Source of the DNA: a virus
Length of the DNA stretch: 64,000 bases
Virus record (IMG/VR): IMGVR_UViG_3300025073_000448
Direction: 5' to 3' (one strand)
Positions within the stretch are counted from its first letter, which is position 1. Each line of letters begins with the position of its first letter. The notes under the pieces are model-generated. The model saw only the letters and a list, made by a program, of their open reading frames with translations, ran no database searches and was not told the DNA's origin. Shown piece after piece: positions 517 through 56,885 of the stretch. Made by a program: the position numbers and the translations under genes.

Positions 517-2814
517 TCACCACCCACCCCGAACCAGCATCCCACCCAAATTGCTCCACCGTTTACTCGTACTCGTCTCCCCGGTCTTAATGGCAATGTT
601 CAATGCCTTCTGCGTTCCCACCAATATCACATACCGCTGTGCCCTGGTAATTCCCGTGTATATTATGCTTCTCTGGAGCATAATGAAATTGGTGGTATGC
701 ACGGGGATAACAACCACAGGGAATTGCGACCCCTGACTCTTGTGAATTGTCATGGCGTATGCCATCTGCAACTGCTCAAAGTCCTTGGAAGCATACTCGA
801 CTTCCCGATCATCGATCATAACCACAACGGCACTCGCATCCCCTCCAAGCACAATCCCCATGTCCCCGTTGAACACCATCTTCTTGTAATCGTTCCTCGT
901 CTGGATGACCCTATCCCCTGTCAAAAAAGGCGTCCCGCCTATAGCCACCCCTTCGACGTTGATCACGGGGCGCAGTCTCCGGTTCAACTCAATCGTCCCG
1001 GCCGGCCCTTTCTTCATGGGGCACAGGACCTGGATATCCTTCAGGTCAAACCCATAGTGCGCGGAGAACTTCACGCATACCTTCTCTATCATGGGAGCAA
1101 TCCCGTGCTTGTCCTCCTCGGTCACGAAAAAGAAATCTGAGTCGCCGTCATTTTTGAGCTCAACCTTCTCGCCTCGGTTGATCCGCTGAGCGTTCCGGTT
1201 GATATAGCTCTTTGCGGCCTGGCGATGAAGCGTGGTGAGATGCACCGTGGGGATTATCCCCGATTCGATGATGTCTCCCAGCACCCTCCCGGCACTCACC
1301 GACGGCAATTGGGCCGGATCCCCCACGAGGATGAGCTGCGTCTTCTCGGGGTTGACCGCGGACAACAGGCTCGCCATGAGCTGCACGTCCACCATGGAGG
1401 TCTCATCAACCACGACCACATCCACATCGAGGGGGTTGTCCTGGTTGTGGCGGAATCCCACCTCGGGATGAAAGGCGAGCAGGCGGTGAATGGTCATGGC
1501 CGCACGACCACCGGTTGCCTCGGACATCCTCTTCGCGGCCTTTCCCGTGGGGGCGGCCAGGGCAATATTCAAATCTCGACCCATGGCTCGGATGATGAAG
1601 TTGATCAAGTGGGTTTTGCCAACTCCGGGCCCACCCGCTAGAACCATGATTTTTGAGGTCATGGCGAGGTCCAGGCCTCGAAGCTGGTCTTGGTCGAGGG
1701 AGTTGATTTCATCCGAGGAGAGCTCGCTTATCATGGCTGCATGGGGGGTTGAAACGAACTTTAGAAGGGACTGTGCCACGTCGATTTCCGCAGTCCACAT
1801 TTCTGCTGTGTAGATGTAGGTGGCGGCAGGGGAAGGTGAGGCCGGTGCTTTTAATTTATGTCCAGCCCATCCCGTAGCATCAAGCTCATCGACTATGTTG
1901 ATTGCTTCTTCAAGACTGATTGTGTCAGTCAAATCGACATCACCCTCGAAGGGGAGGGCTTCCTCCTTCGAGGCATTCCCATCCTTCAAAGCATCATCAT
2001 TCCCCGGCGTAAAATCCACCAGCTTCCCAGCAGCAATCATCTCGTTCAGCACCTCAACAACCTTCTCCTTCCCAGCCTCAAGGATCTCCACCGCCCGCTT
2101 GACCAGTTCCTCGAAGGGAAGACAGGTGTGCCCTTCTCCGCCGGATGCTTCCTGCAGAACATACCTGATGCCGGCCGTCAGGCGGCGCCTGCTTTCCTTT
2201 TTTATCCCGGTGGACACGGCAATGGCGTCGGCTTTCTTGAAGCCTATGCCCCACACGTCAGAAGCCAGGATATATGGATTGGCCTCGATCTGCTTCTTGG
2301 CCTTTTCTTTGGTGCCGTAGGTGTCGATCAAGCGATTCAGGAGAGATGGAGTCACCCCGTGAGTGCTGAAGTACACGTCAATCGTGCGATCCGACATAAT
2401 GGAAACATATTTCTCATGGATCTCCTGGGCTCGGGCTGGGGTGATGCCGTTTACTTCCGAGAGGCGCTGAGGTGAGTGCTCGATCACTTCGAAGAGGGCG
2501 GAGCCGAAGGCCTCCACGAGACGTCGCGAGACTATGGGACCTATCCATTTTAGCTTTATGGAAAGATATTGGATAATACCCATAGTATCTTTGGGGAGTT
2601 CTTTTGTTACGTTTATGGATTTGAATTGCTTTCCATATTTTGGGTGCTCTTCATATTTTCCTTCTACGATTACATAATCACCTACTTCACAATCACTAGG
2701 AAAAACACCAGTGACTGTTTCTTTGACTCCTCTCAACTGGACAAATTTCCATCCACCCTGATATGGCCTAGACATGTCCTTAATGGTTCCCTCTACCCTC
2801 TCTGTGGCATCCAC
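517..2814 (-). CDS. recD2: RecD2/TraA-family SF1B helicase
   Basis: N-terminal OB-like and HhH regions, Walker A GGPGVGKT, LAAPTGKAA, DETSM, GDPAQLPSV, YAMTIHKSQGSQF, YTGITRA. Confidence 0.93.
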   Translation of the reverse strand: MDATERVEGTIKDMSRPYQGGWKFVQLRGVKETVTGVFPSDCEVGDYVIVEGKYEEHPKYGKQFKSINVTKELPKDTMGIIQYLSIKLKWIGPIVSRRLVEAFGSALFEVIEHSPQRLSEVNGITPARAQEIHEKYVSIMSDRTIDVYFSTHGVTPSLLNRLIDTYGTKEKAKKQIEANPYILASDVWGIGFKKADAIAVSTGIKKESRRRLTAGIRYVLQEASGGEGHTCLPFEELVKRAVEILEAGKEKVVEVLNEMIAAGKLVDFTPGNDDALKDGNASKEEALPFEGDVDLTDTISLEEAINIVDELDATGWAGHKLKAPASPSPAATYIYTAEMWTAEIDVAQSLLKFVSTPHAAMISELSSDEINSLDQDQLRGLDLAMTSKIMVLAGGPGVGKTHLINFIIRAMGRDLNIALAAPTGKAAKRMSEATGGRAAMTIHRLLAFHPEVGFRHNQDNPLDVDVVVVDETSMVDVQLMASLLSAVNPEKTQLILVGDPAQLPSVSAGRVLGDIIESGIIPTVHLTTLHRQAAKSYINRNAQRINRGEKVELKNDGDSDFFFVTEEDKHGIAPMIEKVCVKFSAHYGFDLKDIQVLCPMKKGPAGTIELNRRLRPVINVEGVAIGGTPFLTGDRVIQTRNDYKKMVFNGDMGIVLGGDASAVVVMIDDREVEYASKDFEQLQMAYAMTIHKSQGSQFPVVVIPVHTTNFIMLQRSIIYTGITRAQRYVILVGTQKALNIAIKTGETSTSKRWSNLGGMLVRGGW

Positions 2815-2815
2815 T

Positions 2816-3661
2816 TCAAGACCCTCCTCTCTCCTCCCGCAACATACTTATTTCTTCCAGTGCTTGCATGTCAGATAACCCATTTTTAATCTTTGTATAA
2901 AATATGTCATGGCCGACATTAAATTCTTTCATCCAATCAGACAATATTTTTACTTTCCCGTTCCACGCTATAAATCTATTTTTGCGAGTATTTTTAGCTT
3001 GCATTGCGAGTGGTATCCACTCACAATTATTTGCATCATAGTTACCATTTACATTCTTTCTTTCAAGCGAATATCCACTTGGACATAAACCCATATCACT
3101 TAAAAATTGTTTAAAATTGTTAATCCATTCATCACATATAGTTATTCCACGTCCACCATAGCATTCATATCTATCAGCATTTTTATTAAGGCATCTTTTC
3201 TTCATATCTGCCCATGCATCATATTCTCTTGAATGATTTCTTTGTCTTGCATGTCCATGAATTACCTTGTTTTCCCACGTTTCACTTATCAAGCATCCGC
3301 AGCTTCTTGTATTCCCGAATAACCTGCCATATTCTACTGCCACCATATTTCCACAATCGCATCGACATTCCCATAATATCTTTCCGCTTCTATCTTTTCT
3401 GTTTGATTTACATAGCACAGTTAGCTTTCCGGTTTTCATTCCTGTAATATCATTTCCTGCTCTACGTTTATATTGTTTACACCCACATGATTTGGTGTTT
3501 CCTGTTTTTAAGGCATTCCCCTTCCATGTACCAATTAATCCGCACTCACATTGACACTCCCACATTATTTCATTCTTTTTGCCTCGCTTGTCACTTCTTT
3601 TCAGAACTAATATGTAACCAAATTTCTTTCCTGTTAAGTCAATGTAATTTCTTGTTTTCAT
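2816..3661 (-). CDS. HNH-type homing-endonuclease-like protein with two DLTGxKFG...WxCxCxCG...SCGC repeats
   Basis: Repeats plus YGGRGITICDEW and SLERKNVNGNYDANNCEW; AT-rich relative to flanks; start MKTRNY at 3661. Confidence 0.85.
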   Translation of the reverse strand: MKTRNYIDLTGKKFGYILVLKRSDKRGKKNEIMWECQCECGLIGTWKGNALKTGNTKSCGCKQYKRRAGNDITGMKTGKLTVLCKSNRKDRSGKILWECRCDCGNMVAVEYGRLFGNTRSCGCLISETWENKVIHGHARQRNHSREYDAWADMKKRCLNKNADRYECYGGRGITICDEWINNFKQFLSDMGLCPSGYSLERKNVNGNYDANNCEWIPLAMQAKNTRKNRFIAWNGKVKILSDWMKEFNVGHDIFYTKIKNGLSDMQALEEISMLREERGGS

Positions 3662-3785
3662 TGACGCGCCTCGCAGAAAATAAAAAAGCGCAAAGAGCTG
3701 CGAGGGATTCAACATCCCCTCTTGGCCTCACGACCAAAAGACTCTTTGCGCTAACTGGATATCGATATTTACTAATTACAGCCAT
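3639..3785 (-). CDS. Putative 48-aa leader uORF overlapping the HNH start
   Basis: GGAGG-8nt-ATG; MAVISKYRYPVSAKSLLVVRPRGDVESLAALCAFLFSARRVNENKKLH*; spans RNA element 1. Confidence 0.45.
   Translation of the reverse strand: MAVISKYRYPVSAKSLLVVRPRGDVESLAALCAFLFSARRVNENKKLH
3687..3752 (-). ncRNA. Three-way-junction RNA element 1
   Basis: 11-bp outer stem AGCGCAAAGAG/CTCTTTGCGCT, GUGA-tetraloop hairpin, GGGAU/AUCCC hairpin, followed by a U-tract. Confidence 0.65.
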
Positions 3786-3829
3786 TACGGAGGCCTCCGG
3801 TTGAATCTTCGCAATTCAGATCCTACCAA

Positions 3830-4883: not shown

Positions 4884-5384
4884 TTATTCCTTTTCTATTG
4901 GAAAGTTGAGACATGCAAATTCACCAAAGAACTCAACTGCTTTTGCGTCGTATGCTTTGGCGGCTTCAATTTCTTGGTGAGGCTGAAATGACCCAAGGTG
5001 ATATCTTTTTTTGTTAGTTTTTATTTGAGCATACCATCTGTTGTGATTTTTATCCCATGTAACTCCTTTGTATTGTGATATCCCGGTAGTTGTTCTAACG
5101 TTCTGCTGATTACATTGATGCGTTGCCTTCCTAAGATTGAATCTCTGATTGTTCAAGCCATTCCCGTCCCAATGATCCACCTCAATGTCTTCATTCGTCA
5201 ACAATAGTAATTCTCTGTGCATATATATTTTTGGATATCTGACCCCCTTAACAACCGGGGCATTTCGGACAGCATACCACTTATTCTTTGCCGGGTTTGC
5301 ATACCACCGCCACTGCATCAACCACTCCCAATCCTCATCATCAACCAGCGCCACCTTGCCCTGAGTCAAAGGTATTTCCTTCAT
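4884..5384 (-). CDS. HNH endonuclease with C-terminal AP2 domain
   Basis: MKEIPLTQGKVALVDDED, EVDHWDGNGLNNQRFNLR, YKGVTWDK...WYAQI...AAKAYD...FGEFACLNF. Confidence 0.92.
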   Translation of the reverse strand: MKEIPLTQGKVALVDDEDWEWLMQWRWYANPAKNKWYAVRNAPVVKGVRYPKIYMHRELLLLTNEDIEVDHWDGNGLNNQRFNLRKATHQCNQQNVRTTTGISQYKGVTWDKNHNRWYAQIKTNKKRYHLGSFQPHQEIEAAKAYDAKAVEFFGEFACLNFPIEKE

Positions 5385-5388
5385 GACA

Positions 5389-5523
5389 TCATCCCCCAAA
5401 AAAGAAATCGCGCGGATCATGGGTCACCGACTGTCGCTCATCAAGCAAGGAAAATGAGCGAGGCCCAGGAGTCTTTCTCTCCAGTCCACGATACGCGCGA
5501 TAGGGTATTCTATTCTTCTTCAT
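5389..5523 (-). CDS. Putative 44-aa leader uORF upstream of the HNH-AP2 gene
   Basis: AAGCAAGGAA RBS then ATG; MKKNRIPYRAYRGLERKTPGPRSFSLLDERQSVTHDPRDFFFGG*; stop lies 4 nt before the HNH ATG. Confidence 0.5.
   Translation of the reverse strand: MKKNRIPYRAYRGLERKTPGPRSFSLLDERQSVTHDPRDFFFGG
5407..5501 (-). ncRNA. Three-way-junction RNA element 2
   Basis: 16-bp outer stem (1 mismatch, 1 GU), GGAG-AGAAAGA-CUCC hairpin, CGCUCAU/AUGAGCG hairpin with a pyrimidine-rich loop, then a U-tract. Confidence 0.65.
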
Positions 5524-5572
5524 GGGATTCCTTGCTTCTTTGCCGGTGTCGAGTCGTGACTTCGACGGAATC

Positions 5573-5600
5573 ACGTTATCACTCACAGGAATGATGTCAA
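5573..5600 (-). promoter_or_regulatory. Sigma70-like promoter for the uORF/HNH-AP2 unit
   Basis: TTGACA-16nt-TAACGT with an extended TG. Confidence 0.55.
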
Positions 5601-14284: not shown

Positions 14285-14312
14285 TTGCATTGCATCGTAA
14301 AAAGCATATCAT
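14285..14312 (+). promoter_or_regulatory. Sigma70-like promoter
   Basis: TTGCAT-16nt-TATCAT. Confidence 0.55.
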
Positions 14313-14381
14313 CGAATCGTCGTCACGATTTCGCACATCATGGCGGTTTTGATACACCTCAAAAAAACCAGAGAGGATTCC

Positions 14382-14522
14382 ATGAAAAATACGAGCGCAA
14401 GGCAAGGATTCAGGAGCAAGACCTGGAGCATGGCACACATCGCAACCTCTCTGGTATTCTGTGCCGAGCGGCGACCCTTGCCTTGCGCTTCTATGTTCCA
14501 TGGAGGAGCGCAAAAACCATGA
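14382..14522 (+). CDS. Putative 46-aa leader uORF, ATGA-coupled to the next gene
   Basis: GAGAGGA RBS; MKNTSARQGFRSKTWSMAHIATSLVFCAERRPLPCASMFHGGAQKP*; spans RNA element 3. Confidence 0.5.
   Translation: MKNTSARQGFRSKTWSMAHIATSLVFCAERRPLPCASMFHGGAQKP
14394..14489 (+). ncRNA. Three-way-junction RNA element 3
   Basis: Perfect 14-bp outer stem AGCGCAAGGCAAGG/CCTTGCCTTGCGCT, UUCAGG-AGCAAGA-CCUGGA hairpin, GGCACA/UGUGCC hairpin with a 22-nt loop. Confidence 0.7.
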
Positions 14523-17416: not shown

Positions 17417-18702
17417 TAACCTCGACGTCAGCATCAGCATCGCTACCAGCGGCATCACCTACACCAACATCCATTCCACTCGAAAACCCCTGCAAGCTCT
17501 GCCATGAGCGCGAGGCAACCCCGGGACTCAGGACCTGCCCGACGTGTCGCGGGGAAGAGGAGGGGGCGATGTTTGATGACGTGGTGTTCGATGCAAGGAT
17601 GCGTGAAGGGAGCGCGCGCGAAGGTGGAGTGCGCGGAACAATGCCGATGCCACCAAAGAATGAGGCCCCAAAGAGAGAGAAGGCTCACAAGGCAAAAACT
17701 CCATCCCCTTCAAGGCCAATATCTTCCCTTTCAAAGCCAACATCATCGCAGGCCCTTCCAATTCAATCCGAACCACCCATCGCCACCCACTCTGCCACAT
17801 CCACCGCCCCGCCCCGCCCCTTAACCGGAATCTCCCTCGACGCCCAAGAAAAGTGGGAGCAGGCCCGCGCTGGATCCGGAACCAGCACTCGCAAGCCTCC
17901 GCCAAACAAAAAGCCCCGAGAGAAAGTGTATTGCGCCTGCGGGTGTGGCAAGGCCTTCGCCAGGGTGATCGGTGGGTACTGGGAGAGCAGGAAATATTAC
18001 AACGCGGAATGCAAGCGCAGACATTTCAAGCCTAATTTCGGCTGGCCAGGGGATGGCAGTGGCGGCGGCGGCGGCGAAAAAAATGGAGGCAAACCGGAAA
18101 AGTACACAATCACCCCCGAAGGGGACGAGCTCATAAAGCAGCTCTATGCCGAGAAGGTGGGGATGGACCGCAAAAGCCACGTCAAGGCCCTGGCCGAGCA
18201 GCTCGGTGTTCCTCCTTGGAAGGTTTCCCGCCGGGCGTCGGCGCTCGGGGTCCTGTTTTCACCAAGGGCGGAAGCTCCATGGAGCGATGAGGAGCTCGCC
18301 TGTCTCAAGGAAAATGCCCACTGGTCCCCCGTGGTCATTGCCAGAAACATGCGGAAGGCTGGATTCCAGCGGAGCGCCACGGCTGTTAAGGTGAAAATGA
18401 CGAGGCTTGGCGGGAAGGAAGTGGTGCTGAATGGGGAGAGCTTCACTTCTCGGGGACTGGGTAGGCTGTTCGGGGTGGACAGTCAAGCTGTTGTGCGGTG
18501 GATCGATCGGGGGTTGCTCATTGCCGAGCGGATGGGGACCGCGAGGACCGAGGCGCAGCATGGGGATATTTGGAGGATCAAGCGGGAGGATGTGCGGCGG
18601 TTTGTGCTGGCGCATGTGAACGTGATTGATTTCCGAAAAATTACTGATCGTTGGTGGTTCGTTGAGCTTGTGGCTGGGGTTGGGAGAGATGGGAATAAAT
18701 AG
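17413..18702 (+). CDS. Putative DNA-binding protein (zinc ribbons, Myb/SANT-like repeat, HTH)
   Basis: CKLC..CPTC, CACGCG, PWSDEELACL, LGRLFGVDSQAVVRWI; start MITSTS at 17413. Confidence 0.65.
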   Translation: MITSTSASASLPAASPTPTSIPLENPCKLCHEREATPGLRTCPTCRGEEEGAMFDDVVFDARMREGSAREGGVRGTMPMPPKNEAPKREKAHKAKTPSPSRPISSLSKPTSSQALPIQSEPPIATHSATSTAPPRPLTGISLDAQEKWEQARAGSGTSTRKPPPNKKPREKVYCACGCGKAFARVIGGYWESRKYYNAECKRRHFKPNFGWPGDGSGGGGGEKNGGKPEKYTITPEGDELIKQLYAEKVGMDRKSHVKALAEQLGVPPWKVSRRASALGVLFSPRAEAPWSDEELACLKENAHWSPVVIARNMRKAGFQRSATAVKVKMTRLGGKEVVLNGESFTSRGLGRLFGVDSQAVVRWIDRGLLIAERMGTARTEAQHGDIWRIKREDVRRFVLAHVNVIDFRKITDRWWFVELVAGVGRDGNK

Positions 18703-19503: not shown

Positions 19504-19593
19504 GTGTTCCCCACATGCGCGGGGATGAACCGATGATGATCGACGGGCTGGTCACAGTCAAGGTGTGTTCCCCACATGCGCGGGGATGAACCG
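19504..19593 (+). CRISPR. Type I-E-like CRISPR mini-array: 2 identical 29-nt repeats, 1 spacer of 32 nt, no cas genes
   Basis: GTGTTCCCCACATGCGCGGGGATGAACCG at 19504-19532 and 19565-19593; spacer ATGATGATCGACGGGCTGGTCACAGTCAAGGT. Confidence 0.93.
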
Positions 19594-21975: not shown

Positions 21976-22497
21976 ATGGCGCGCAGACCATCATCACAAG
22001 GAAAGCCAATCACTACCCTTCGAGGGGAAGTATCGGCATCAAAACCACCCGCGAAACCCGCACCGCAATCCTCCACACCCTCATCATCTTTCCCATCCTC
22101 CCCGCCATCCTCAATAGAAAAAACAGTATCCCGCCTCCTGAAATTCACCGCCTCGGCCTGCCATTCGGAGATCACGGACGCACTTCGTCACGAGATCCCG
22201 CGGCCAAACATCGCATCGCTCCCGCCCGTACCGGACCACACGCACCGCACACTCCGCTCCATCGGACGCAGGCTTTCCCCCTCGAGGCCGTTTTGTCCCG
22301 ATACCGTGAAAAAGCTCGTGGCCCAGGCCGGGTTGCCGGCGAAGCAGCTCCCGGGAAAAGGGTGGTGGGCGGTGAGGGATGATGACATTGAGGCTTGGAT
22401 TGAGGAGTATATGGCGCGTGAGGAGGGAGGTGGCGGAGTGGCGATGGAAGGCGAGAGACGTGACGGAGAAATGGAAAATAAAAAGAAAAAGCCTTGA
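21976..22497 (+). CDS. Excisionase/MerR-like HTH protein
   Basis: CPDTVKKLVAQAGLPAKQLPGKGWWAVRDDDIEAWI. Confidence 0.6.
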   Translation: MARRPSSQGKPITTLRGEVSASKPPAKPAPQSSTPSSSFPSSPPSSIEKTVSRLLKFTASACHSEITDALRHEIPRPNIASLPPVPDHTHRTLRSIGRRLSPSRPFCPDTVKKLVAQAGLPAKQLPGKGWWAVRDDDIEAWIEEYMAREEGGGGVAMEGERRDGEMENKKKKP

Positions 22498-22543
22498 AGG
22501 AGAGGAGGTGCAACGCCATGCCCTTCCCCTTCAAGGCTTTTTT
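22486..22543. terminator. Bidirectional terminator-like hairpin between convergent blocks (47-bp REP-like element)
   Basis: AAAAAGCCTTGAAGG...CCTTCAAGGCTTTTT, 15-bp arms with A and T tracts. Confidence 0.8.
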
Positions 22544-28105: not shown

Positions 28106-28193
28106 TGGCACGGGAAGGGGAATTCTGATTCCAGTTACAAGATATTTTATTCATTCAACATCCAACAAATTTTCTTGCGGGAGAAAATACGAC

Positions 28194-40458: not shown

Positions 40459-40534
40459 GATCGCGCGGTCTAGGGAGAGATCCCCGAAGAGCCCATACTC
40501 CCGCATGGGCCTGGCCGCGCGATCTACTTTTTTT
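40459..40534 (+). ncRNA. Three-way-junction RNA element 4 (apparently stand-alone)
   Basis: 12-bp outer stem GATCGCGCGGTC/GGCCGCGCGATC, GGGA-GAGA-UCCC hairpin, GCCCAU-ACUCCCGC-AUGGGC hairpin, T7 tract. Confidence 0.65.
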
Positions 40535-43760: not shown

Positions 43761-43817
43761 AGTATGCCTTGAAGGAGAGGAGACAGCAACCCGCGCCCTT
43801 TCCCTTCAAGGCATACT
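43761..43817 (+). terminator. Hairpin after the capsid gene (second 47-bp REP-like element)
   Basis: AGTATGCCTTGAAGG/CCTTCAAGGCATACT, 15-bp perfect arms, T-rich tail. Confidence 0.7.
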
Positions 43818-55825: not shown

Positions 55826-56773
55826 ATGGCAAAAATCACCAAGATAAAATCAATCGGGAACATCCCGCTCAACATAGATCCAGACGTTCGCCGCATCCTC
55901 ACGGCCTTGAAGGAGAGGGCCGAGATCCTGTTTGGAGATCGCGCCTCCGATTCCGGTGAAAAGTACCAGAGCTATGCCGAGTTTGTTGAATCGCTTGAAT
56001 CCGTCAACCAGGCGCTGTCCGGAAAAGCTGAAACCGATCACGGCCACGAAGAAACGTATTACACCAAGGAATCCACGGACAAGAGATTGTCCGAGATGAG
56101 GATCTTGGATTTAGAGGATGTTGGGTTTGAAACCGGGACCGAGAACGCCGGCAAAATCCTCTTTGTAAGCAGGGAAAGCGGGGCCGTTGACGTGATCCCA
56201 GGGGTGATGATTGGCGAGGAAGGAAACGTGGAGCTCTCCGATGGCGCCGTTTCCTTCGAGGACATTTCCGTGTCCGGCCTTTCTCTTTCCGATCCGATAG
56301 CTCCTGCGGTAGGGCCAGGGCTCATTCCGGTGTTCGCGGCTGGGAATTGCATAGGGGTCGGCTTCGACGGGGCCGGCGCGCTCGAGGAGAAGCACGGAGA
56401 AATCCTCCTTCCAGGAAAATACTTGGAAGGGTCGGACGTCGTCCCGTTCGTTTCCTGGATGCCCGCGGTTGCCGGGGCCGGGGATGTTAAATGGCAGCTC
56501 GAGTATTCCTGGCAGAATGACGGAGAGGCTTTCGCGGCTCCGACGACCGTTGATGTCGTTTCAACATCATCAGGAACAGCATGGCAGCCAGAGCGGGCCG
56601 CATTCGCCGCTGTTTCCGGGAGCGGCATGCTGGTCAGGTCCAAGATAGTTTTCAGAGTTTTCAGGGATTCCGTGGATGGTGATGACACCTATGGGAGCGA
56701 TGCCGTGCTTCTTGATGTTGGGTTTACGATTCAGGTTGACGGATTCGGGATGAAGACCGCGGACTCTAAATAA
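55826..56773 (+). CDS. Tail-associated structural protein
   Basis: ILTALKERAEIL N-terminus; beta-sandwich-like C-terminus GDVKWQLEYSW. Confidence 0.7.
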   Translation: MAKITKIKSIGNIPLNIDPDVRRILTALKERAEILFGDRASDSGEKYQSYAEFVESLESVNQALSGKAETDHGHEETYYTKESTDKRLSEMRILDLEDVGFETGTENAGKILFVSRESGAVDVIPGVMIGEEGNVELSDGAVSFEDISVSGLSLSDPIAPAVGPGLIPVFAAGNCIGVGFDGAGALEEKHGEILLPGKYLEGSDVVPFVSWMPAVAGAGDVKWQLEYSWQNDGEAFAAPTTVDVVSTSSGTAWQPERAAFAAVSGSGMLVRSKIVFRVFRDSVDGDDTYGSDAVLLDVGFTIQVDGFGMKTADSK

Positions 56774-56862
56774 AACGGAATGCCGATAAACGGAATGCCG
56801 ATAAACGGAATGCCGATAAACGGAATGCCGATAAACGGAATGCCGATAAACGGAATGCCGAT
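56773..56862 (+). repeat. Six perfect tandem copies of a 15-bp quasi-palindromic unit
   Basis: (AAACGGAATGCCGAT)6, intergenic. Confidence 0.95.
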
Positions 56863-56885
56863 AAAAAAAGAAAGGATTCCCCTTC

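Follow-up and report, generated by a model that had tools for sequence, protein, structure and literature searches.

We describe a structured RNA leader, Element 1, that precedes an HNH-family nuclease gene in an uncultured tailed phage. The leader is located in a window of 64,000 nucleotides (nt), which is part of the phage genome (IMG/VR record IMGVR_UViG_3300025073_000448). Judging from sequence comparisons, the three-way junction at its centre is a selected RNA within a conserved leader that has no prior catalogue entry. We tentatively favour the explanation that positions 3821-3677 form a portable leader cassette of ~145 nt that belongs to free-standing HNH genes of this phage group, and that would act as a translation-coupled terminator with a loop-based antisense throttle. 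From its layout, the leader probably keeps the output of the nuclease low.

The junction occupies 66 nt (3687..3752) and, like all features and pairings of the leader, is read on the minus strand. It consists of a basal stem, two hairpins and a joiner. According to the partition function, a basal stem of 12 base pairs (bp) joins 3752-3741 with 3698-3687. This stem encloses hairpin 1 (3740-3719; 9 bp, with the GNRA loop GUGA), hairpin 2 (3718-3704; 5 bp, with the loop GUUGA) and a single-stranded joiner of 5 nt (3703-3699). Pair probabilities are 0.8-1.0 throughout the junction: 24 of its 26 pairs reach 0.9-1.0, and the outermost basal pair is at 0.8. Directly 3′ of the basal stem there is a U-run (3677..3686; six U, an A and four U). 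Together, the stem and the U-run look like an intrinsic terminator, as the 12-bp stem ends in GCGCU and is followed by a U-tract that is also kept in a homologous leader.

The homologous leader occurs in the nearest relative that we used, an 89-kb IMG/VR record (G001) with ~81-92% identity to the window across the genes in common. A descriptor scan found it at ~8880-8710 of G001 L092 (minus strand); the place syntenic to it falls outside the window. At this other site of the G001 genome, it precedes a canonical HNH gene of 173 amino acids (phrog_1271), which is unrelated to the phrog_374 nuclease that follows Element 1. Both nucleases match HNH-endonuclease PHROG families only. The set of homologues consists of these two leaders, from one small phage group.

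The two junctions align without gaps. In the alignment, 46 of 48 cells are paired (95.8%) and 10 of 24 pairs show compensatory double changes, compared with 0-3 in slid controls. Kept nearly letter for letter are the U-run, the GNRA loop and the pairs that close it, and, in the basal stem, the first four and last five bases. From the Shine-Dalgarno sequence of a small open reading frame (ORF) in the leader through its ATG and the next codon, 21 of 23 bases are identical. The similarity ends just after the U-run, so the module is separable from the downstream gene. Our search model, R1, scores 101.6 and 99.7 bits on the two homologues, and 9.1 bits on the opposite strand of Element 1. Given the G-U pairs and the difference between 101.6 and 9.1 bits, the RNA is on the sense strand of the nuclease gene, and a structure on the opposite strand or at the DNA level is ruled out.

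Searches for additional members returned little. Neither Element 1 nor the homologue matches any Rfam family at E-values up to 10. ARAGORN found no tRNA-like gene, and a tRNA-like or tmRNA identity was rejected. The exact hairpin-2 word has 0 matches in viral contigs. A pattern combining the ORF start with the stem start matches solely the related phage and its near-duplicate, and the remaining matches of the ORF-start word alone, in viral contigs and genomes, are coding sequence without a junction. Two unrelated, abundant gut sequences dominate the metagenome scan, with no further homologue among the matches listed. Queries with the helicase, gp34-like and HNH proteins gave the same two relatives and nothing more. 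Model R1 has no further match in the window, in the whole related phage or in 80 loci with relatives of the nuclease.

Two parts of the junction are complementary to ribosome-binding sites in the same leader. An earlier, sequence-only reading of the window had noticed these complementarities, and the pairings that it named are present in the sequence where it placed them. Of its 16-nt segment, 3713-3704 make up the hairpin-2 loop and 3′ arm, 3703-3699 form the joiner, and 3698 is where the basal 3′ arm starts. In pairing B, eight perfect Watson-Crick pairs form between 3713-3706 and 3807-3800, as described there. However, the extra pairs number five rather than the six that had been counted, and they join 3702-3698 with 3814-3810 across a 2×3 internal loop, including one G-U pair. 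The upstream target, site T1 (3800..3814; core 3807-3800), thus complements the hairpin-2 loop and 3′ arm, and ends 1 nt before the small-ORF Shine-Dalgarno sequence. In pairing C, 3705-3698 pair perfectly over 8 bp with the nuclease Shine-Dalgarno region (3669..3676). This stretch, which occurs once within the window, includes the GAGG sequence (3672-3669) that lies 7 nt ahead of the nuclease ATG at 3661.

As a control for chance, 20,000 windows were taken from the two phages; in 0.6% of them, the hairpin-2 region has an 8-nt complement within the 43 nt up to the small-ORF ATG. For the junction core and the 23 nt up to the nuclease ATG, a complement of this length turns up in 1.4% of random and 3 of 203 ORF-start windows. 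A 15-nt junction probe gives 1.6% and again 3 of 203.

Both complementarities are re-created in the G001 leader with different letters, so they are conserved and not accidental. Between T1 and the hairpin-2 loop, three positions have changed on both sides and pairing is kept (15 of 16 cells paired); in the loop-to-site helix, 3 of 8 pairs are changed on both sides. The loop target is at −22..−15 relative to the small-ORF AUG in Element 1, and at −21..−15 in the homologue. The equivalent 15-nt junction segment pairs with its own, non-homologous Shine-Dalgarno region at −14.9 kcal/mol in Element 1 and −15.8 kcal/mol in the homologue, and for each leader, 3 of 203 ORF-start controls reach that strength. 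Swapped combinations of segment and Shine-Dalgarno region are weaker (−10.2 and −5.6 kcal/mol). When the 5′ arm is removed in silico, to mimic a ribosome on it, the nuclease Shine-Dalgarno sequence pairs with the 3′ half of the junction in both homologues. Additional trans targets of the loop were sought and rejected: the 8-mer occurs elsewhere at chance frequency, and never at ribosome sites.

The sequence-only reading, which did not mention the junction, had inferred three mutually exclusive folds that form a translational switch. Ensemble folding does not bear this out. The junction holds the ensemble, and folds B and C, which contain the respective pairings, have a pair probability of 0.0. 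Forcing them costs 12.5 kcal/mol (fold B) and 9.6 kcal/mol (fold C) of ensemble free energy. The alternative folds are thus energetically negligible, an outcome that the reading itself had set against an equilibrium switch. Given that they are negligible in nested thermodynamics, the pairings need either a ribosome that opens the junction, contact of the loop with a strand while the junction stays folded, or an effect in trans.

The small ORF has 48 codons (3639..3785; ATG at 3785, stop codon 3641-3639). It spans the junction and the U-run, and stops 20 nt beyond the nuclease ATG. Its Shine-Dalgarno sequence, GGAGG (3798-3794), is followed by a conserved CCUCCG. The two lie in a perfect 12-nt palindrome (3799-3788), as had been noted. 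The palindrome holds at 10 of 12 positions in the homologue, and is perfect only in this window. The frame is open for all 41 codons up to the nuclease ATG, as it is in 11% of shuffles, and the other two frames are closed after 2-3 codons.

In four leaders, three in the window (Element 1 and elements E2 and E3, discussed below) and one in G001, an ORF crosses the junction and stays open for 38-46 codons, as far as the main start. The openness is matched by 11-19% of shuffles per leader, and the product over the four leaders is ~3×10⁻⁴. The ORF ends 20 nt after the main ATG in Element 1, and reads on in frame in the homologue. In E2, its stop precedes the main ATG by 4 nt, and in E3 the two overlap as ATGA. 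The start of the small ORF is conserved, the peptides are unrelated across leaders, and the amino acids of the two homologues differ wherever the stems covary. This pattern indicates that translation of the small ORF matters and that its product does not.

At 8821-8186 of G001 L092 (minus strand), the leader AUG is 38 codons upstream of the HNH AUG and in frame with it, with no stop codon in between. If translated from the leader AUG, the nuclease would thus carry an N-terminal extension, read through the terminator-like junction.

Three sister elements, refolded here, occur in the window. E2 (5389-5600, minus strand) lies in front of an HNH-AP2 gene (4884-5384) that G001 lacks, and E3 (14285-14522, plus strand) precedes a non-nuclease gene. 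Both have a plan like that of Element 1: a small ORF runs across a three-way junction whose hairpin-2 loop is complementary to the Shine-Dalgarno region of that ORF, here as a perfect 10-nt complement. The null fractions for the loop-to-ribosome-site match are 0.6% (Element 1), 2% (homologue), 0.2% (E2) and 0.05% (E3). E4 (40459-40524, plus strand) is a stand-alone junction with a U-run and no gene behind it, and has an identical copy in G001 (L090 4573-4638). E2 and E3 escape model R1, which finds E4 only at an E-value of ~1. Therefore, we treat the sisters as analogues or distant kin, not as demonstrable homologues. A search with stem patterns of the E2/E4 type gave random GC-rich matches only. 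A candidate target of E4 at 28176-28183 is unsupported, as its 7-mer occurs 17 times versus 13 expected.

E4 resembles int-alpA (Rfam RF02996), a candidate small RNA (sRNA). The match to the full model, at 40463-40534, has 33.2 bits and an E-value of 0.005, relative to a threshold of 35.8 bits. In the Weinberg 2017 collection, int-alpA is reportedly tied to prophage and integrase regions. Element 1 itself shares with int-alpA a basal stem that encloses two hairpins and is followed by a U-run; in the int-alpA consensus, a G-rich stretch comes after the U-run. However, Element 1 does not match int-alpA at E ≤ 10. It lacks the conserved joiners: its helices abut without intervening nucleotides at two of the three sides, and the third has an unrelated joiner of 5 nt. 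It also has longer stems and a GNRA loop on hairpin 1. It is conceivable, although we rather doubt it, that portable "governor" cassettes for selfish nuclease genes form a class of their own, so far undescribed, to which Element 1 and its sisters belong. Such cassettes would combine a terminator, a translated leader and a self-targeting antisense, with a private loop-and-site code and a fold shared with c4 RNA and int-alpA.

Building on the observed fold, its conservation, the two complementarities, the open frame and the U-run, we infer termination, coupling and an order of events. The cassette would comprise a strongly initiating small ORF, the 66-nt junction that it traverses, and the U-run that makes the basal stem a terminator. 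With no ribosome behind the polymerase, the junction would fold and transcription would end ahead of the nuclease gene. A ribosome on the small ORF would hold the 5′ arm open, allowing read-through, and would then arrive at the nuclease start, thereby coupling the two genes. In the open junction, the freed 3′ half would pair with the nuclease Shine-Dalgarno sequence and keep uncoupled ribosomes from initiating. Once folded, a junction in the same molecule or in a terminated leader RNA would mask the ribosome site of the small ORF with its hairpin-2 loop and so throttle initiation. By analogy with P1 c4, this throttle may act in trans, or it may act in cis. The net outcome would be very low, pulse-like synthesis of the nuclease.

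The proposed mechanism resembles that of leader-peptide attenuators. In leaders of the trp type and the erm/cat type, a short ORF overlaps a terminator, and the position of the ribosome decides on termination and unmasks the next start. Element 1 likewise has a short ORF with its own Shine-Dalgarno sequence that overlaps a terminator-like structure. By contrast, Element 1 shows neither a stalling peptide nor a run of regulatory codons, and a stable antiterminator is not clearly conserved: the candidate, fold B, is favoured transiently for transcripts that start near 3812, and reaches 0.2-0.4 in the homologue. Moreover, the ORF of Element 1 runs through the whole terminator, whereas the ORF of an attenuator stops before it. 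The leader is best filed under antisense/attenuator control, a known kind of control that would here act on homing-endonuclease genes.

Several observations weigh against the coupled terminator and throttle. Branched terminators are atypical. Expression of the downstream RecD2 helicase gene needs transcription through or past the terminator, and the only promoter-like site seen is at 2910-2882. When transcription is simulated with upstream sequence included, T1 becomes locked in a local 5′ hairpin, which is a difficulty for transcripts that come from the upstream gene. The covariation statistics are weak because there are only two homologous sequences, and for the long-range helix 27-57 of 500 shuffles reach the observed values. 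The junction-to-Shine-Dalgarno match in the homologue is at chance level when the whole core is the probe, and the corresponding complementarity is at chance level in E2 and E3.

The rival explanation that survives best, although we consider it unlikely, is a trans-acting antisense RNA similar to c4. The junction would be freed by its own U-run, perhaps with 5′ processing, and would repress other copies of the leader at the small-ORF site and the nuclease Shine-Dalgarno sequence. Each cassette would then have a private "immunity" specificity. Mature c4 RNA is ~77 nt long, is released by RNase P and acts in trans.

This explanation draws on the resemblance of the leader to the P1/P7 system, in which c4 is an antisense RNA with icd-ant targets (Citron & Schuster 1990, as summarised in PMC5320573 and PMC8198154). 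The logic matches that of c4, a three-stem RNA cut from the operon that it controls; one of its loops binds an upstream sequence for specificity, another occludes the ribosome-binding site, and a difference of 4 nt suffices for a separate specificity (PMC5320573). Element 1, too, is a three-stem RNA inside the transcript that it would regulate, with segments complementary to sequences at or beside ribosome-binding sites. As in the c4 system, translation of a small ORF would gate the distal gene, and the sequences suggest that a few changed letters in loop and site give a new specificity here also. The homologues differ at 3-4 loop/site positions, and the cross-pairs are weaker. E4, which is alone with its U-run, lacks an ORF and nearly matches the int-alpA sRNA family, fits a trans-acting RNA as well. 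The negligible cis alternatives at equilibrium likewise favour loop-mediated contacts.

However, Element 1 has no sequence or covariance-model similarity to c4. The C4 (RF01695), c4-2 and c4-a1b1 models gave no match at E ≤ 1, window-wide at E ≤ 5, or at E ≤ 10 on the element alone or the homologue. Unlike c4, the Element 1 RNA lies inside the small ORF, ends with its own U-run and has its target upstream of the RNA. The controlled gene also differs, being an antirepressor for c4 and homing-endonuclease-like genes for Element 1. The hairpin-2 loops are short, at 5 nt (4 nt in the homologue), and the stem must open before they can pair in full. Finally, antisense action in trans does not by itself explain the open ORF through the RNA.

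A plain terminator or 3′-end stability element seems improbable to us. It would be borne by the cassette or serve the upstream operon, and the complementarities and the small ORF would have no regulatory role. The very stable stem with its U-run, the negligible alternative folds and the orphan E4 without a gene behind it agree with this explanation. In addition, T4 mobE and segF have terminators at their 5′ ends (PMC2988022). However, a plain terminator needs neither conserved branches, nor a GNRA loop, nor an upstream ORF start. Loop-to-site complementarity occurs in four leaders, with a joint chance far below 10⁻⁶, and it covaries. The junction-to-Shine-Dalgarno match is re-created on a non-homologous gene, and the frame is kept open four times.

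Other homing endonuclease genes have a different kind of 5′ structure: hairpins sequester the ribosome-binding sites of the T-even genes I-TevI, I-TevII, I-TevIII and segB and of Aeh1 mobE (PMC2988022). Element 1 is similar in that a selfish nuclease gene has a 5′ RNA structure and, as predicted from sequence, a start-proximal terminator. In T-even phages, however, the Shine-Dalgarno sequence sits in simple ground-state hairpins, which late promoters bypass. The branched ground state of Element 1 leaves the Shine-Dalgarno sequence unheld, as no ground-state hairpin sequesters it (helix C has a probability of 0.0), and the leader adds a read-through small ORF and an antisense loop.

In a sigma-70 consensus scan, we found no promoter-like site at 3830-3661 (minus strand), either as a promoter of Element 1 itself or as a T-even-style promoter giving transcripts without the inhibitory arm. 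The same scan found none from the U-run to the nuclease ATG. TTGCAT-type sites in the homologue leader and in E3 score below its threshold. The word common to these sites was considered as a phage-wide promoter motif and rejected, given that it is not general in the phage.

We regard the switch proposed in the sequence-only reading as very improbable. In this scheme, three comparable and exclusive cis folds toggle the nuclease Shine-Dalgarno sequence, and the ribosome terminating on the upstream gene might choose among a 5′ hairpin, fold B and the junction. Every helix exists, and simulated transcription does support transient dominance of fold B, although in the window solely when the transcript starts near 3812. 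Fold B then reaches 0.8-0.9 for 3′ ends at 3705-3693, in the absence of 3829-3818. That segment is the partner in the local 5′ hairpin, and adjoins the upstream stop codon (3832-3830). However, this hairpin is not kept in the homologue, where fold B reaches only 0.2-0.4 in simulated transcription. The energy penalties and zero pair probabilities of folds B and C already speak against comparable folds. Furthermore, with the junction formed, the nuclease Shine-Dalgarno sequence is only partly paired, with a mean unpaired probability of 0.3-0.6.

As a further comparison, the HEARO or omega RNA of IscB is a large structured RNA beside an ORF of the IscB type (RuvC and HNH). A protein-binding or guide-type RNA that similarly works with the nuclease would fit the association with two unrelated HNH genes and the compact junction with its conserved GNRA loop, but we consider it far-fetched: Rfam gives no match to HEARO or any other family, the nucleases are small (173 and 281 amino acids) and mutually unrelated, so a common RNA partner is improbable, there are sister elements followed by a non-nuclease gene or by none, and the RNA shares its sequence with a translated frame and a terminator.

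The nuclease gene downstream of Element 1 (2816..3661, minus strand) is AT-rich and homing-endonuclease-like. Its 281-amino-acid product matches phrog_374 "HNH endonuclease" with an E-value of 1.7×10⁻⁷¹, and a Pfam search gives zero domain matches. Thousands of relatives have identities of up to 50%, and an identical protein is encoded on 12 contigs. The gene occupies a variable slot between a gene similar to Pam3 gp34 (4879-3830, minus strand), which is the upstream neighbour of the leader, and the RecD2 helicase gene (2814-517, minus strand). The equivalent slot in G001 contains two other, unrelated small ORFs. Similarity between the window and G001 stops precisely at the stop codon of the gp34-like gene and returns within the helicase. 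Given the different slot content and this break, we conclude that the nuclease gene and its 170-nt leader are an insertion.

The insertion also affects the helicase gene, whose start codon and ribosome site now come from the 3′ end of the insertion. The first ~25 helicase residues differ from those in G001, indicating that the N-terminus was replaced by the insertion. At 2814-2845 (minus strand), the last codons of the nuclease gene are a purine-rich ribosome site, and the nuclease stop codon overlaps the GTG start of RecD2. The sigma-70 consensus scan found a promoter-like site with a 9/12 match inside the nuclease gene (2910-2882). By analogy with the promoter after mobE, which serves nrdB, this site could serve the helicase. 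As with T-even homing endonuclease genes, the downstream host gene may thus own a promoter within the 3′ end of the inserted gene.

The window has other repetitive or structured sequences. Two identical 29-nt repeats resembling those of type I-E CRISPR arrays occur at 19504-19593 (plus strand), 61 nt from start to start, with one spacer and no cas genes. Long, near-perfect hairpins with a CCCCTTCAAGGC-type word, followed by T-runs, are found at 22486-22542 and 43761-43817. Copies of the CCCCTTCAAGGC-type motif occur at 17692, 31319, 34346, 42694 and 58901, and the word is also present after the gp34-like gene in G001. The CCCCTTCAAGGC hairpins look like strong, partly bidirectional terminators or a phage-specific signal. 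At 56758-56877 (plus strand), a 15-nt unit, AAACGGAATGCCGAT, is repeated in 6-7 tandem copies, in an iteron-like arrangement.

Homing-endonuclease genes must be expressed, but barely. To our knowledge, few ways of restraining them have been described outside T4-like phages. An RNA module of ~145 nt that moves from one nuclease gene to another, unrelated one would solve this problem in a new way. The module would join a terminator, a small ORF for read-through and a self-complementary loop, and would extend the antisense principle of c4 to a new setting. It would also provide a lead on what orphan three-way-junction sRNAs, int-alpA among them, do. If the governor class is real, it suggests that the function of int-alpA is antisense control directed at ribosome-binding sites. 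The module would also be a compact, re-codable part for synthetic gene control.

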